A DNA stretch of 13,724 bases from a virus (taxonomy: Duplodnaviria > Heunggongvirae > Uroviricota > Caudoviricetes), in the IMG/VR virus record IMGVR_UViG_3300047317_000139; one strand, written 5' to 3'. How positions within the stretch are numbered: the first letter of the stretch is position 1; the number at the start of each line of letters is the position of its first letter. A model generated the notes under the pieces. That model was not told the origin of the DNA and did not search any database. It saw nothing but the letters and a program-made list of their open reading frames with translations. This document shows, one piece after another, positions 2,521 to 13,724 of the stretch. The translations under genes and the position numbers were made by a program.

Positions 2521-3267
2521 TCAGGCCGCGCGCTCCAGGATCGGAACGTCCGGTTGACGGCACTGCTGGACATTCGACCAGTTGGTCTTGACCAGCAGCT
2601 CCGCCTCGTTGTGCCTCAGCGCCAGAACCTGACCCACCCAGCCATCGGCTGTCGGCAGAGCCCCGTCGTCCCCGTACATCCCCGGTGCGACACAACCTCG
2701 CCGGAGCCGACACCCGTGGGCGTCGATCTCGACGATGTTGCCGTGCACAGATGCGCGGTGGGTCTCCACCTCGTACCGACGACCCGATGGAGCCTGGATC
2801 GTGATCCGCTGATGCTGCTTCCGCTCCTGACGCTGGTCGGGCGTCAGGATCATGTCCAGGAGCTCCAGAGCCCTGGATGCGGCCATCACCCGCTTCTCCA
2901 CGTATTCGGCCTCCTGTGCGGCCCTCAGAGCCGCCCTGGACGCCCTCTCCCGCTCCATCTGGGCTAGGTCCTCAACGGTGTACTGCGGAGGCCTCAGAAG
3001 GGCACCGAAGTTGATCGGCTCCATCTGGTTCCAGCGGACCCAGGCCTCGTCGTTGACGTAGAACCCAGTGGTGGTGCTCGCGGTGGTGTTCCACTGGTAC
3101 CAGGTTCGGTCGGCCTGGAGGTCGTACGTCACCGTCGTGCTGGCAGTGCCAGTCGTCCAGGTGTTCCAGACGATGTCGTTGATGTACGTGATCTCCTTGG
3201 TGGCGTGAAGTTCGCCAGTGGTGATGAGGCCCCCTGGCTGGTACTTCACGAAGCCCTTGCTAGCCAC
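2521..3267 (-). CDS. Hypothetical protein (248 aa), partner 1 of the GG-protein module; conserved Cys192; N-terminal Trp/Thr repeats
   Basis: GTG 3267 overlaps the TAG of 3260..3505; C-terminal half aligns by eye with 3938..4402 (RA..LL..I..P, GR..Y, NI..IDA.G, C..P, LP..D.W.GQ.LAL...E). Confidence 0.85.
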   Translation of the reverse strand: MASKGFVKYQPGGLITTGELHATKEITYINDIVWNTWTTGTASTTVTYDLQADRTWYQWNTTASTTTGFYVNDEAWVRWNQMEPINFGALLRPPQYTVEDLAQMERERASRAALRAAQEAEYVEKRVMAASRALELLDMILTPDQRQERKQHQRITIQAPSGRRYEVETHRASVHGNIVEIDAHGCRLRRGCVAPGMYGDDGALPTADGWVGQVLALRHNEAELLVKTNWSNVQQCRQPDVPILERAA

Positions 3268-3505
3268 CGACCAGCTGCTTGGTCATGATGATCTTCGACC
3301 TGGTCGGGTCGAACTCCCGGATCACCTCGCCGGTCTTCTCGCCGTCCGCGTTCACTGCGTAGGCGAGCATGCCCTTCTTCTTGGCCTCGTTGAAGGCCTT
3401 CCGGGCGATCGCCACCTCGTCGGCGTCGCGCGGGTCCCACATGATCCGGTTGTCGCCGGTGCTGTCCGGGATGGACAGCATGTGCTCTTCGGTGGATGTG
3501 CTCAC
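3260..3505 (-). CDS. Small protein ending in diglycine (QLVGG), putative ubiquitin-like beta-grasp protein, copy 1 (81 aa)
   Basis: SD GAAGGG, GTG 3505 in a GTGA overlap; 25/74 ungapped identity with 4404..4667. CDS is solid; the fold is inferred. Confidence 0.85.
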   Translation of the reverse strand: MSTSTEEHMLSIPDSTGDNRIMWDPRDADEVAIARKAFNEAKKKGMLAYAVNADGEKTGEVIREFDPTRSKIIMTKQLVGG

Positions 3506-3774
3506 TGTGTTCCCTTCGTGGTGTTCTCTCGGTGGCTGCAGTCATCGTTCATGACTCCAGAGTCGATGTGCCGGACGAGGACCTGCTTCTCGTCGTACTT
3601 CATGAACACGACCTCCCTGATGTGCCGGCGGTCGTGCTCGCTCTCGGTCGGCGCGAAGGCCTCCTGCAGAGCTCCTGCGTAGTCCTTGATCGCGTCCTCG
3701 ACTTCCAGGTAGTCGTGAACGAACACCTGGTCGTCGCAGTAGGTGATGGCGACTTGATACGGATCTCCTTGCAT
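3502..3774 (-). CDS. Hypothetical protein (90 aa, MQGDPYQV...)
   Basis: SD GAAGGG before ATG 3774; stop overlaps the start of 3260..3505. Confidence 0.7.
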   Translation of the reverse strand: MQGDPYQVAITYCDDQVFVHDYLEVEDAIKDYAGALQEAFAPTESEHDRRHIREVVFMKYDEKQVLVRHIDSGVMNDDCSHRENTTKGTQ

Positions 3775-3787
3775 GGATCTTCCCTTC

Positions 3788-3933
3788 TGTGTGGGGTGAG
3801 GGGGGTCACCCTCCACCACACATCTCTGCCCCCCTGGAGAGATGTGCGATGGGCTATGGCCCCCGGGCACAGCGGAGGTGGACGACGGGCCCATGTACCG
3901 GCCCTACGGGGGATGGGACCGCCCGTCGCCCAC
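3788..3933. other. Structured intergenic region, three hairpins (two overlapping)
   Basis: tgtgtgg 3788-3794 / ccacaca 3816-3822; cacatctct 3819-3827 / agagatgtg 3838-3846; gtggacgacgggc 3878-3890 / gcccgtcgcccac 3921-3933. Confidence 0.7.
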
Positions 3934-3937
3934 TGGT

Positions 3938-4402
3938 CTAGAAGATGTTCGCTTGCTCCAGGAACCTCTTCTCGTCGTACTTCAGGGCAAGGTACTGCCC
4001 CAGCCAGATGTCGCCTGCTGGCAGGCACAGAGGCTGAGTGCCCTGCTCTTGCGCTTCCCGACGAGCGTCCAGCCAGAGTGAGTTGCTCATCTCGACGTAG
4101 CGCCGGCGTTGGTAGGACTCCGGGGACACGTAGTCGTTGTAGGCGTACGGCCCACCACAGATCCCGTGGTCGTAGCCGTTGGCGTCGATCTGCCGGATGT
4201 TCTCCGACGTGCCGTCCAACCAGATCTGGTACGTGCATCGCCCAAGCTGACCCCGGAACTCGATGTGAGTGGGATCGCGACGCATGATCTGACCGAGGTT
4301 GTTGCGTCTGGGCTCGTACCTCCACTCACCGGGGAGGACGATGCTGCGGAGCAGCGCTTGTGCACGCTGCTCCGCTGCCGCCCGCTGTTGGGCGATCGTC
4401 AC
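3938..4402 (-). CDS. Hypothetical protein (154 aa), partner 2 of the GG-protein module; conserved Cys82
   Basis: GTG 4402 lies 1 nt after the TGA of 4404..4667; paralogous to the C-terminal half of 2521..3267. Confidence 0.85.
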   Translation of the reverse strand: MTIAQQRAAAEQRAQALLRSIVLPGEWRYEPRRNNLGQIMRRDPTHIEFRGQLGRCTYQIWLDGTSENIRQIDANGYDHGICGGPYAYNDYVSPESYQRRRYVEMSNSLWLDARREAQEQGTQPLCLPAGDIWLGQYLALKYDEKRFLEQANIF

Positions 4403-4403
4403 A

Positions 4404-4667
4404 TCAGCCGCCGACGTACTGCGGCTGAACCACCGTGTGGACCGCCGTGTCCTCCAGCTTGGACGTGACGTGAGCCTCACCGCCACCCTCCTCCGTGAGG
4501 ACGAAGGCGCGCATGCCCTTGGCCATCGACTCGTCGAACTTGGACATCGCGTCCGCGACCTCCGCGTCGACGTTCGGGTCGTACACGGTGACCGAGTCAC
4601 CGCTGTTGTCCAGGATCCTCAGGACGTGCTTGCCCTCGGGGATCTCGATGTGTGAGAGAACCGACAT
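4404..4667 (-). CDS. Small protein ending in diglycine (QYVGG), putative ubiquitin-like beta-grasp protein, copy 2 (87 aa)
   Basis: SD GAAAGG upstream of ATG 4667; paralog of 3260..3505. Confidence 0.85.
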   Translation of the reverse strand: MSVLSHIEIPEGKHVLRILDNSGDSVTVYDPNVDAEVADAMSKFDESMAKGMRAFVLTEEGGGEAHVTSKLEDTAVHTVVQPQYVGG

Positions 4668-7350: not shown

Positions 7351-7622
7351 CAGATCACCATGAACCCTTGGTCGGTCATGACCCCGAACTCCTTGTCCTC
7401 GGAGTTGAAGATCGCCTTGATGTGCAGCAGCAGCTGCGCGATGGCTTCGGTGCTGTCCTCGAACCCGAACATCACGATGCCGCCCTGGTCCTCAGAGGAG
7501 AGACAGATGATCCCCTTCACATCGGCGTTCTCCGGGGTCTCAGTTACCTCCCGCATCTCGTTGGCCAGCTCGGTGAGCCGGTCGAACGGGATCGGGGCCT
7601 TGTGGAGGTCATGGATCGACAT
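7350..7622 (-). CDS. Hypothetical acidic protein (90 aa)
   Basis: TGATG overlaps at both ends. Confidence 0.75.
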   Translation of the reverse strand: MSIHDLHKAPIPFDRLTELANEMREVTETPENADVKGIICLSSEDQGGIVMFGFEDSTEAIAQLLLHIKAIFNSEDKEFGVMTDQGFMVI

Positions 7623-8104
7623 CAGAGGTCTCCCTTCCAGGGCCCGAGCAGCTCCTGGTGATCGAGGTAGTCCTTGTCGAACCCGACGTGCCAGGGGAAC
7701 CGATCGTTCATGTCTGGCCAGACCAACTGCAAGGCCTTGAAGTCACCCATCAGACGCCGGGTCATGGTCATCGGGTACTCGGTGTCCACCGGGTGAGCGA
7801 TCTCCACGAAGGCCACTCGGTGCTCTACCAGCACCTCGTTGAAGTACTCGCCGGCACGGAACCTCTCACCGTCCTCCATCCGTGCGAAGGCCGAGCTGAG
7901 TACTCCATGCATCTGTCGGTGGTCCATGCCCATGATCAGCAGCTCCGGCTGGTCGTGATGCGTGGAAAAGCCCACTGTGTAGTTGAACGGCAGACCGGGG
8001 TGTCCCTCGACCGGGAAGATGCTCATGTCCGACCAGCCGTGCTTCTCGATGTCCTCGATCACCTTCAGGTCCAGAGCGTCCATGCGCTCCTGGTACTGGC
8101 TCAC
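7622..8104 (-). CDS. DUF4262 domain-containing protein (160 aa)
   Basis: IEKHGW...P.F.YTVG...PEL...G....ALQLVWPD...FPW match the recalled DUF4262 signature; GTGA overlap and SD GAAAGG. Confidence 0.85.
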   Translation of the reverse strand: MSQYQERMDALDLKVIEDIEKHGWSDMSIFPVEGHPGLPFNYTVGFSTHHDQPELLIMGMDHRQMHGVLSSAFARMEDGERFRAGEYFNEVLVEHRVAFVEIAHPVDTEYPMTMTRRLMGDFKALQLVWPDMNDRFPWHVGFDKDYLDHQELLGPWKGDL

Positions 8105-9404: not shown

Positions 9405-9613
9405 GGGCCGGTCCTCGATCAGAGGAGCCGGCCTGCTCGGGAGTGTCGGTGCCTCTCAGTAGAGGACTTATCCGGGTGACTCCGGAAGATCGGGCTCCAC
9501 ACAGAAGGAGCTGGTCGATCTTCAGAGGTAACAACCTCATGTACATGATTATACGCTATACACGACATTCGCACAACCCTGTGACCTACCGTGAGACCAG
9601 GGGGTATGAGCCG

Positions 9614-9868
9614 ATGACCAGGATGAAAGACCGCAGCACTGGCGAGATCATGGTGATCATGATCGCCGGCACGGTGTGCGGGTCGGTAGTCGTAGGAATG
9701 CTCGGGATTCTCATCCTGGCCTGGAAGAACCCCAACTTCGACTTCGGTGGAGCTGCCAGAACGATCGCTGACCTACTCACCACCATGGTCGGTCTACTGG
9801 CCGGTTTCCTGGCTGGGAGAACAGACGTGGCGATGAAGAAGCAGCGGGACGAGAGCGATGGGACCTAG
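9614..9868 (+). CDS. Two-TM membrane protein (84 aa), holin-like candidate
   Basis: Two hydrophobic segments and a charged C-tail KKQRDESD; SD AGGGGG 9 nt before ATG 9614. Holin function is unproven. Confidence 0.7.
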
Positions 9869-10454
9869 AGGCTGGATCGGATACGGCTCCTCCGGAGCAC
9901 TGGCGGCATGTGCAGTAGCTCTGTCGGTGTTCGCTGGCTCTACCCCACCTGCACCAGCGAACTCACCGACTCCACCACCTCCTTCGTCATCTACATCCAG
10001 TACGGCACCGAGTAGTCCAGAACCGTCTCTGGTAGTGGGTCCTGTGGGTCCCAGAGGCCCTACTGGACCCCAGGGACCTGTGGGTCCCATAGGAGCCACT
10101 GGAGCCAACGGCACGGGCATCCCTGGTCTGACTGGACCAGCTGGTGCTCCTGGTACTACTGGCGGGGATGGTGCGCAAGGACCACCAGGAACAACAGGAG
10201 CACGAGGGCCCAGTGGACCGCCAGGTCCCGAGGGTGAGCGAGGTCGAAGAGGCCGGCGGGGTCCACAGGGTGATCCTGGTGTACCTGGTCTGGTAGGACC
10301 AACTGGCCCACCAGGAGAACCAGGTCCACCTGGACCGTCGACACCACCTGGTGCGTGTCCTCCTGGCTACACCTTCGAGACCGTGGCAGTACACCAGCGA
10401 CAGCCAGTCGATCGGGATCTGATCATCGACGTGTGCGTACAGGATGGTCAGTAG
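9858..10454 (+). CDS. Membrane-anchored collagen-like protein (198 aa)
   Basis: N-terminal hydrophobic anchor, Pro/Ser linker, 33 Gly-X-Y triplets, C-terminal CPPGY...C domain; start overlaps the upstream gene. Confidence 0.85.
10038..10340 (+). repeat. Collagen Gly-X-Y repeat
   Basis: 8 triplets, one Gly-Thr interruption, then 25 triplets (aa 61-161). Confidence 0.9.
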
Positions 10455-11514: not shown

Positions 11515-11546
11515 TTGCATCCATCACACACACTGCATAGTGTGTG
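11515..11546 (+). promoter_or_regulatory. Rightward promoter for the helicase-primase unit with overlapping palindrome
   Basis: TTGCAT 11515-11520, N17, TAGTGT 11538-11543; cacacact-gcat-agtgtgtg 11527-11546. Confidence 0.65.
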
Positions 11547-11573
11547 GCACACGCATCTGACAGGAGCTACCAC

Positions 11574-12869
11574 GTGCCACTCTCCGCCGAAGGTCTGCTG
11601 ATCTCCGCTCTGTTGAACACCGAGTCGGTCGGCGAGGAGGTGAAGTACGGGATCGGCGCTGGGCTCTTCGAGGGGTACTCGGACGAGTACAACTGGATCA
11701 CCAACTACGTGGAGACGTACGGGTGCCAGCCGACCCGGGACATCTTCAGTCACAAGTTCCCGGGGTTCGCGTTCTCCGACCACGCCGACGTCAGATCGGC
11801 CGCGGACATGGTGCACTCCCAGGCGAACAAGCGCCGGATCACCATCGCGATCACCGAGTCCATGGAGCTGATGCACCTAGGCGAGACCGAGCAGGCCCAC
11901 CAGCTCCTGGTGAACGCTGCTCCACGTCGGGCGGTGGTGAAGCCGAAGCCGCTGCTGGTCGATGAGACACACCTGGACAACTGGGATCACCGTCCGTACA
12001 CGGTGGAGGTGCCCTACGCGACGCTCCAGCGGCACACAGGAGGCCTGCGGGCCGGGAACCTGTGGTACCTGGCAGCCAGGCCGGGACAGGGGAAGAGCGC
12101 CCACCTGTCGTCCATCAGCAAGCACGCCGTACTGGCCGGAAACCGGGTCCTGTTCTACTCCTTGGAGATGTCCGAGGACGAGGTCAGGGCCCGTTTCCAT
12201 GCCTCCCTGGCGACTGAGATGGGCTACCCCTCGATCACGTTGAGCAACCTCCGCGCCTGGAACGTGGACCGTGCTGCGTACCGGAGGTTCCACGGTGAGC
12301 TCGCCGAGCGCCTGCAGGCCTGCGGCGGCTCTCTGGACATACACACGCCGGCGGACGGACCGGTGTCACCTGCAGTGGTGGCTGCTCGCTGCGGCGAGTA
12401 CCACCTGACCAACATCGACTACGTGGGGCTGATGTCCCAGGACGGGGGCGGGCGAGCGATCGACGACTGGCGAGTGATGGCCTCCATCAGCAACTCCCTG
12501 AAGTACACCGCTCTGTCCCAGAAGACGGCGATCCTGTGCGCCGCCCAGATCAACCGGGACGGGGAGACCGGGCACGCACCACCCAAGGTGAAGAACCTGG
12601 CCCAGTCCGACGCCCTCGGGCAGGACGGGGATGTGGTGCTCACGATGCGTGCGAAGCCGCACGACGTGGCCACCCACTTCTCCATCGAGAAGAACCGGCA
12701 CGGGCCCAGCGGCATCGGGTTCTACACCACCTTCGACCCGAACACCGGCACCTACACCGAGATCTCTGGCGACCACGCCGAGGACCTGGTGATCAACGCC
12801 GAGGCTCTGGCCGACACCTCCACACCGCCACCTGCGCTGCGGGTGATCAAGAGCAAGGACAAGTTGTGA
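11574..12869 (+). CDS. dnaB: DnaB-like replicative helicase (SF4), 431 aa
   Basis: Walker A AARPGQGKS, FYSLEM, Walker B IDYVGLM, AQINR, SDALGQDGDVV, EKNRHG; SD CAGGAG before GTG 11574. Confidence 0.95.
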   Translation: MPLSAEGLLISALLNTESVGEEVKYGIGAGLFEGYSDEYNWITNYVETYGCQPTRDIFSHKFPGFAFSDHADVRSAADMVHSQANKRRITIAITESMELMHLGETEQAHQLLVNAAPRRAVVKPKPLLVDETHLDNWDHRPYTVEVPYATLQRHTGGLRAGNLWYLAARPGQGKSAHLSSISKHAVLAGNRVLFYSLEMSEDEVRARFHASLATEMGYPSITLSNLRAWNVDRAAYRRFHGELAERLQACGGSLDIHTPADGPVSPAVVAARCGEYHLTNIDYVGLMSQDGGGRAIDDWRVMASISNSLKYTALSQKTAILCAAQINRDGETGHAPPKVKNLAQSDALGQDGDVVLTMRAKPHDVATHFSIEKNRHGPSGIGFYTTFDPNTGTYTEISGDHAEDLVINAEALADTSTPPPALRVIKSKDKL

Positions 12870-13003
12870 GCACTGCTGTAGCTGAGAAGCCCACCATCGG
12901 CATGCCGATCACGCACAAGATCTCCTGGGGGAGGTTCACCTGGGTGTGCGTCCACCCCTACTGCGATGGCTCGCACCACGTGTATGTGCGATGCGAGCAC
13001 TGA
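12866..13003 (+). CDS. Cys/His-rich microprotein (45 aa) containing PYCDGSH
   Basis: GTG 12866 in a GTGA overlap with the helicase stop; bridges to the primase start. Confidence 0.5.
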   Translation: MSTAVAEKPTIGMPITHKISWGRFTWVCVHPYCDGSHHVYVRCEH

Positions 13004-13724
13004 CTCTCGCTGAGGCCCTCCGGTACGGCCGGGGGGTCGAGAGGTCCTTCCTCTGCCCCGAGCACGGTGACAGCCGTCCCAGCGCCTCGGTGAACATCAT
13101 CAAGGGGAAGTGGTACTGCTACACCTGCCACGCCACCGGCGACCTGGGTGGTGAGGCCCGACTGGCCGAGCCGGATTACCAGCAGATGAAGCTCTGGGTC
13201 GACAACAAGCTGGCCGAGGGAGAGGTGTTCCCCGAGTCCTGGCTGTCCCGCTGGGATGCCGGCCCGGTTCACCCATATTGGGTAGAGCGGGTGGGCGAGG
13301 CGGCAGCCCGTGCCTTCCGGCTCGGGTACGACCCAGAGACACGAGCCGCCACCTACCCGCTTCGTGACCCAGCCGGGAGGGTACTGGGGGTTGTACGACG
13401 GTCCTTGGGGGGTGACGGACCGAAGTACAGGTACCCGCATGGGGTCGACGTGGGTCGTCTGCTCTTCCATTACACACCCGAGCACCGCGAGGCGGTGGTG
13501 TTGGTCGAGGGAGCGCTGGACGCGATCGCGCTCTGGAACGTCGGAGTGGATGCCTTCGCCATCTACGGCAGCCGACTGTCGGTGGATCAGGTCAGACTGA
13601 TCGACAGGATCGACCCCGAACGGGTCTACACCTGCTACGACATGGACGACGCCGGCTGGGAGGCACACCGGATGACCGAGTGGTCGTTCAAGCACCGGCT
13701 GGTGACCCGACTGACCTGGCCCAA
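12991..13724 (+). CDS. dnaG: DnaG-type DNA primase, 3' end beyond window
   Basis: Hand translation: Zn-binding CPEHGDSRPSASVN...WYCYTCHATG; TOPRIM LVEGALD and YDMDDAG (DxD). Frame open to the window end, so absent from the ORF track. Confidence 0.93.
   Translation, partial: MRALTLAEALRYGRGVERSFLCPEHGDSRPSASVNIIKGKWYCYTCHATGDLGGEARLAEPDYQQMKLWVDNKLAEGEVFPESWLSRWDAGPVHPYWVERVGEAAARAFRLGYDPETRAATYPLRDPAGRVLGVVRRSLGGDGPKYRYPHGVDVGRLLFHYTPEHREAVVLVEGALDAIALWNVGVDAFAIYGSRLSVDQVRLIDRIDPERVYTCYDMDDAGWEAHRMTEWSFKHRLVTRLTWP

Follow-up and report, generated by a model that had tools for sequence, protein, structure and literature searches.

A conserved, mainly phage-borne gene pair encoding a probable beta-grasp protein with a Gly-Gly end and a cysteine partner of predicted E2/RWD-like fold

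Background

The bacterial ubiquitin-like conjugation systems considered here (Bil, Bub, and CBASS) are encoded by the hosts, which use Bil and CBASS as anti-phage defences. Bil and Bub are bacterial operons that carry their own E1 together with a JAB and/or DUF6527 peptidase. In E2-CBASS (Serratia CdnG-E2), the substrate is a cGAS-like cyclase, the C-terminus of which is processed (10.1101/2022.05.25.493364, PMC12948482). The mycobacterial activating enzyme MoeZR serves three carriers (PMC3227635).

The phage gene pair described here, a small protein ending in Gly-Gly (GG protein) followed by a cysteine-bearing partner, is arranged as the Ubl-E2 half of Bil, Bub, and eukaryotic ubiquitination. 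In contrast to Bil and Bub, it consists of two genes, is mostly viral, lacks a linked E1 or JAB, and has no match in Pfam and none in PADLOC at E < 0.01. Given the lack of a linked E1/JAB, of an HPN motif, and of any family match, the pair falls outside Bil, Bub, and eukaryotic ubiquitination. It also differs from E2-CBASS in having a small putative beta-grasp protein that usually ends exactly at GG, and in lacking a cyclase or effector. The GG protein is like the ThiS/MoaD/CysO/SAMP/Urm1 carriers (PF02597 and relatives) in size, in its free GG end, and in the sequence of its final strand and P-x-x-x-G-G tail (hhalign, 21 columns, P 0.0014), whereas the remaining sequence does not align. Its connector between strands 4 and 5 is short and has 8 residues and an F-D-P motif. 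Family members also have a hairpin with invariant G-D...W, and they pair obligately with a Cys protein where the known carriers have MoaE, ThiG, or CysM. The partner recalls eukaryotic E2 (UBC)/RWD/UEV domains in its predicted helix, four-stranded meander, and helices, and by-eye motif comparison sets its N...C...P-x-x-D order beside the E2 HPN...C...W-x-P-x-x-T segment. However, it is smaller (~115 aa), has G-N for H-P-N, places Asn and Cys 13-15 residues apart rather than 8, and shows neither a Y-P-x-x-x-P motif nor profile similarity. What is new here is the E2/RWD-like fold of the partner and the tail-to-Cys complex model, both predicted.

Results

The source is a 41.9-kb IMG/VR virus record (52% complete, 63% GC), and the analysed stretch of 13,724 nucleotides, hereafter the window, is part of it. 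The pair occurs twice in a leftward block of small genes, and ordinary phage genes lie further along the window (Table 1). The closest cultured relatives of the window helicase are Gordonia phages (~29% identity), and we infer an actinobacterial host. The sequence was found in soil and rhizosphere metagenome runs, with no RNA dataset among them; contigs from four soil or rhizosphere runs span most of the stretch piecewise, which confirms the sequence and nothing beyond it. The product of the gene at 9858-10454 (+) has collagen-like Gly-X-Y repeats; it begins with a hydrophobic N-terminal segment and bears a Cys motif at the C-terminus. A small membrane protein gene (9586-9868) adjoins this gene.

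Table 1 Features of the window, with coordinates counted from its first nucleotide
Feature	Position	Strand	Remarks
Partner of copy 1, 248 aa	2521..3267	-	GTG start overlaps the copy-1 Gly-Gly codons (8-nt overlap); invariant Cys192, codon 2692-2694
GG protein copy 1, 81 aa	3260..3505	-	ORF ends GG-stop; GC3 0.95
Intervening 90-aa gene, no known family	3502..3774	-	Overlaps copy-1 start, translationally coupled to copy 1
Partner of copy 2, 154 aa	3938..4402	-	Short form without N-terminal low-complexity region; GTG start one base past copy-2 stop; invariant Cys82, codon 4157-4159
GG protein copy 2, 87 aa	4404..4667	-	Divergent, beta-grasp-like; ORF ends GG-stop; GC3 0.91; family profile E 9e-21
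Stand-alone zinc finger PF24623	4887..5147	-	Upstream of copy 2; possible accessory; E 5e-7
DUF4262 protein	7622-8104	-	Ordinary phage gene
DnaB-like helicase	11544-12869	+	Ordinary phage gene
CHC2/Toprim primase	12988-13724	+	Ordinary phage gene

A preliminary description of the window had reported two proteins ending in Gly-Gly, and both open reading frames exist at the coordinates given (Table 1). An AAGG(G)A-type ribosome site precedes each, and they are the only two of the 97 high-GC3 ORFs on the 41.9-kb contig that end in GG. The copies are paralogues (34% identity, E 3e-14), and their gapless alignment over 74 residues bears out the claim that copy 2 has the same spacing as copy 1. Across the family, GG is C-terminal in 218/230 homologues, the terminal Gly is invariant in the pair alignment (217/217), and the stop codon directly follows the terminal Gly in 242 of 257 distinct members; 221 of the 257 stop exactly at GG. 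A Shine-Dalgarno artefact was rejected as the origin of this end, with 15 of the 16 possible Gly-Gly codon pairs in use and GGAGG present in only 25/102 members. Since GG is conserved while codon choice is free, the tail is selected as protein.

Some members depart from this form. One to five residues follow GG in nine loci (L049, L104, L112, L273, L314, L325, L360, L379, L388), where trimming would be required, and a separate set ends in PG or KG (L086, L087, L133, L025, L054, L094, L122). Two proteins (P0156, P0223) consist of repeated GG-family units ending in GG or AG, an ISG15-like tandem; another (P0196) has two units and no GG, and a further one (P0190) extends ~140 residues beyond GG.

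Loci were gathered by DNA patterns, using one set for the GG protein and a separate set for the partner; two GTDB pattern matches (L137, L138) were discarded as false positives. A partner lies downstream of all 269 GG genes with sufficient flank, and a GG gene lies upstream in 70 of the 73 loci found partner-first (226 distinct pairs). Translational coupling was seen in most pairs, with intergenic offsets from -8 to +17 nt in all frames, and a conserved readthrough or frameshift joining the two genes was rejected on these offsets. No third gene recurred near the cassette in ~120 loci examined by clustering and reading, and the 90-aa gene between the window pairs has no recurrent counterpart beside the cassette in related loci. 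In one locus (L063:701-3112, -), GG protein and partner form one ORF with the junction GGT TTA ATG, a TAATG-type overlap plus one extra T, which may be a real fusion or an assembly error. Partner-domain genes without an upstream GG gene were found in L194, L213, L022:515-1309, and L153:6237-6974, the last two being second copies in genomes with a full pair.

Both window partners share a C-terminal domain, and each lies directly downstream of its GG gene. The partner of copy 1 has a Thr/Ser/Trp-rich low-complexity N-terminus (2914-3267, -; Thr 18%, Ser 10%, Trp 6%, Lys 1%), a charged helical segment, and then a 120-aa domain (residues 119-248). Within this domain, Cys (225/226) and Asp (225/225) are conserved and Pro and Asn are nearly invariant; there is no second invariant Cys, and a His stands two residues after the Cys in 168/226 partners. 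The GG/partner feature is real and conserved. Linkage between a GG gene and the gene that follows it is strict, and both the terminal Gly and one Cys of the partner are invariant. The N-terminal region is Thr/Ser/Trp-rich and lysine-poor in most partners, with W-x-x-W-like spacing repeated in 62/84 and a zinc finger in a few. PF24623, which stands alone in the window, occurs as an N-terminal fusion to the partner in two related phages (L002:8236-9234, L003:8556-9722; E 3e-4, below the cut-off), which hints at DNA, or something bound to DNA, as what the partner acts on.

The GG family comprises 1,118 representatives at 50% identity, and its Atlas clusters are nameless and mostly viral. Searches of Pfam, PHROGs, NCBIfam, PADLOC, and PDB sequences gave nothing significant for either protein; none of 144 GG members matches PF02597 in Pfam and no library names the family. 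Full-text searching, with most subscription papers outside its scope, found no paper on the family. Only two of 50,697 GenBank phage records match the pair, both without a named host. Loci with the cassette span 27-71% GC; further examples of the pair come from Bradyrhizobium plasmids, from genome assemblies of Ramlibacter, Nitrospiraceae, and Acidobacteriota, and from Virus Rctr197k. On the plasmids (L151, NZ_CP121651.1; L152, NZ_CP064691.1), the pair stands alone amid metabolic genes, with a short-form partner and, in one case, an adjoining recombinase. In Virus Rctr197k (L153:2312-2566), the cassette has an annotated CRISPR array and transposase-like genes no more than ~2 kb away.

No ThiF was found on the source contig (52% complete), and of 24 near-complete genomes of phages with the pair, 20 yielded none; a JAB was present in 3 of the 24. 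Of the complete genomes that carry the pair, most lack an E1. Among 50 genomes with the pair, 8 contained an E1 and 5 a JAB; where present, E1s were 6-100 kb from the cassette, and in two cases a ThiS-like protein adjoined the E1.

The fold of copy 1 was modelled with AlphaFold2 (pLDDT 83), and DSSP gave E8-14, E17-23, H28-43, E46-51, E57-62, and E71-76 followed by coil. The beta-beta-alpha-beta-beta-beta order proposed in the preliminary description is thereby present, except that strand 4 lies ~3 residues earlier than claimed. The QLVGG tail, said to be exposed, is indeed coil and unstructured in the monomer model (pLDDT 79 at residues 71-80, 41 at residue 81). Among the within-protein couplings, A48-M74, P13-K76, S11-D18, and L47/Y49-V61 would suit a sheet order of 2-1-5-3-4 with strands 1 and 5 parallel, whereas W23-I72 and P25-S70 are less clear. 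The suggestion of a ubiquitin/ThiS-type topology and a possible Ubl family is supported in part, by the strand/helix order and free GG tail. Superposition scores on known beta-grasps were weak, with protein L/G scoring as high as any Ubl. Alignment of the GG family to PF02597 with hhalign gave a probability of 17.7%, over the tail only. The GG protein is probably a compact beta-grasp.

Fold matches for the partner domain were weak and E2/RWD-like, and were to neither MoaE nor rhodanese. Foldseek and a second look with VIA returned nothing for the partner, and an absent match of this kind does not exclude a fold. No E2 sequence signal was detected in Pfam among 102 members, hhalign against bacterial UBC and Prok-E2_E gave at most 1.3%, and G-N stands where an HPN motif would be. 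The domain is predicted to be a reduced E2(UBC)/RWD-like fold.

Complex prediction for copy 1 with its own partner domain scored 0.77, compared with 0.01 for the best control; this mark was attained by 58/80 solved complexes and by 2/110 mismatched pairs. Contact agreement between runs was at least 92%, with partner pLDDT at least 81. In the model, tail residues 75-81 lie on partner residues 74-87 along the Cys strand, and the listed contact pairs suggest that Gly80/81 are placed opposite partner Cys74. The predicted partner-binding face consists of S11, P13, L47, Y49, I73, and T75 plus tail 75-81, the sheet face (11, 47, 49, 73, 75) being packed on helix 1 and on the helix after the Cys. We take this packing to resemble the closed E2-ubiquitin state, so the score may partly be memory of solved E2-Ub complexes. 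Inter-protein covariation over the 226 pairs was not significant (mean z 0.03 over 25 predicted contacts, with 38/200 shuffles as high), and a mean-field run, in which the interface took 8 of the 20 highest-ranking pairs versus 2-5 in 12 shuffles, was too weak to count. The partner is likely a dedicated Cys protein that binds the GG protein.

Discussion

A GG-ending chain needs activation before thioester formation. Since no nucleotide-binding domain was seen in the partner and ThiF is mostly absent, a host E1 would be the simplest source of that activation. The reading we favour, at about even odds, is that the phage pair is a minimal module of a Ubl and an E2-like protein, which a host ThiF/MoeB-type E1 charges and which acts by covalent transfer. 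A host enzyme of the ThiF/MoeB/MoeZ type would adenylate the MoaD/CysO-like tail, the partner Cys would accept the Ubl as a thioester, and the Ubl would then either be handed to a host or phage target, at a lysine or hydroxyl, or remain on the partner. Target choice could lie with the variable partner N-terminus (the Thr/Ser/Trp-rich region, sometimes a zinc finger), and the two divergent copies may serve different targets. The likely role would be host takeover or counter-defence.

An E1-independent reading, which we regard as unlikely, makes the partner a cysteine protease or transpeptidase that cuts after GG in precursors, fusions, or host-made conjugates, and that maybe ligates by transpeptidation like the single E2 of E2-CBASS. 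Because most members end exactly at GG, there is no peptide bond to fund transpeptidation, and because the gene gap occurs in all frames, there is no conserved readthrough precursor. It is less probable again that the GG protein is a sulfur carrier, thiocarboxylated by host MoeB/MoeZ/ThiF, with the partner Cys taking the sulfur, as a persulfide or an acyl-disulfide, to thio-modify RNA, DNA, or protein, or with host sulfur relays being drained. The tail does match ThiS/MoaD/CysO, thiocarboxylates are made by host E1s of this class, and a Cys beside the tail suits sulfur and acyl transfer equally. However, no PP-loop ATPase, rhodanese, MoaE, ThiG, or CysM was prominent among recurring neighbours in ~120 loci, a judgement based on clustering and reading and not on scans for families, and the partner fold matches point to E2/RWD rather than to MoaE or rhodanese.

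The pair might instead be a decoy or sink that mimics Ubl and E2 and jams host Bil, Bub, CBASS Cap2, or sulfur E1s without targets of its own. We rank this slightly below the sulfur carrier, as it is not obvious why such a decoy should always need an invariant-Cys partner of its own, and the GC span of the cassette loci indicates a wide host range, whereas bacterial ubiquitination-like operon families are sparsely distributed. Least probable of all is a non-covalent heterodimer, in which the beta-grasp and E2 likenesses arise by chance, the GG end acts as a binding motif that the partner buries, and the Cys has a structural or metal-binding role. The weak fold scores, protein L/G equalling any Ubl, and the missing sequence link between partner and E2s would fit. 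Against this, two independent weak matches indicate matching halves (Ubl and E2) of one pathway, the Cys is single with no second invariant Cys, and the stop follows the terminal Gly in nearly all members.

Returning to the host-charged Ubl and E2-like module, a broader and more tentative version, which we hold to be rather less than evenly balanced, is that of a widespread virus-encoded two-gene ubiquitination system in which a new Ubl family, with a highly reduced E2-like enzyme that the housekeeping sulfur-pathway E1 of the host charges, covalently tags host or phage proteins during infection. If so, phages would use Ubl conjugation offensively, with a cascade put together from a sulfur-carrier E1 and an added E2. 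If the pair conjugates, it would be a minimal Ubl-E2 system relying on a host E1, would bear on how E2s were joined to sulfur-carrier pathways, and would represent a new way for phages to take over the host or counter its defences. The module is mainly phage-borne, spans more than a thousand 50%-identity clusters, is nameless in five libraries, and consists of two small, easily expressed proteins.

Several large phages have the pair and an unlinked E1 (L141-L150); a JAB often adjoins the E1, and in two of them a ThiS-like GG protein is encoded (L143:2114-2320, L144:6-191). This unlinked set of E1 with JAB or ThiS-like protein is read as a second phage Ubl module.
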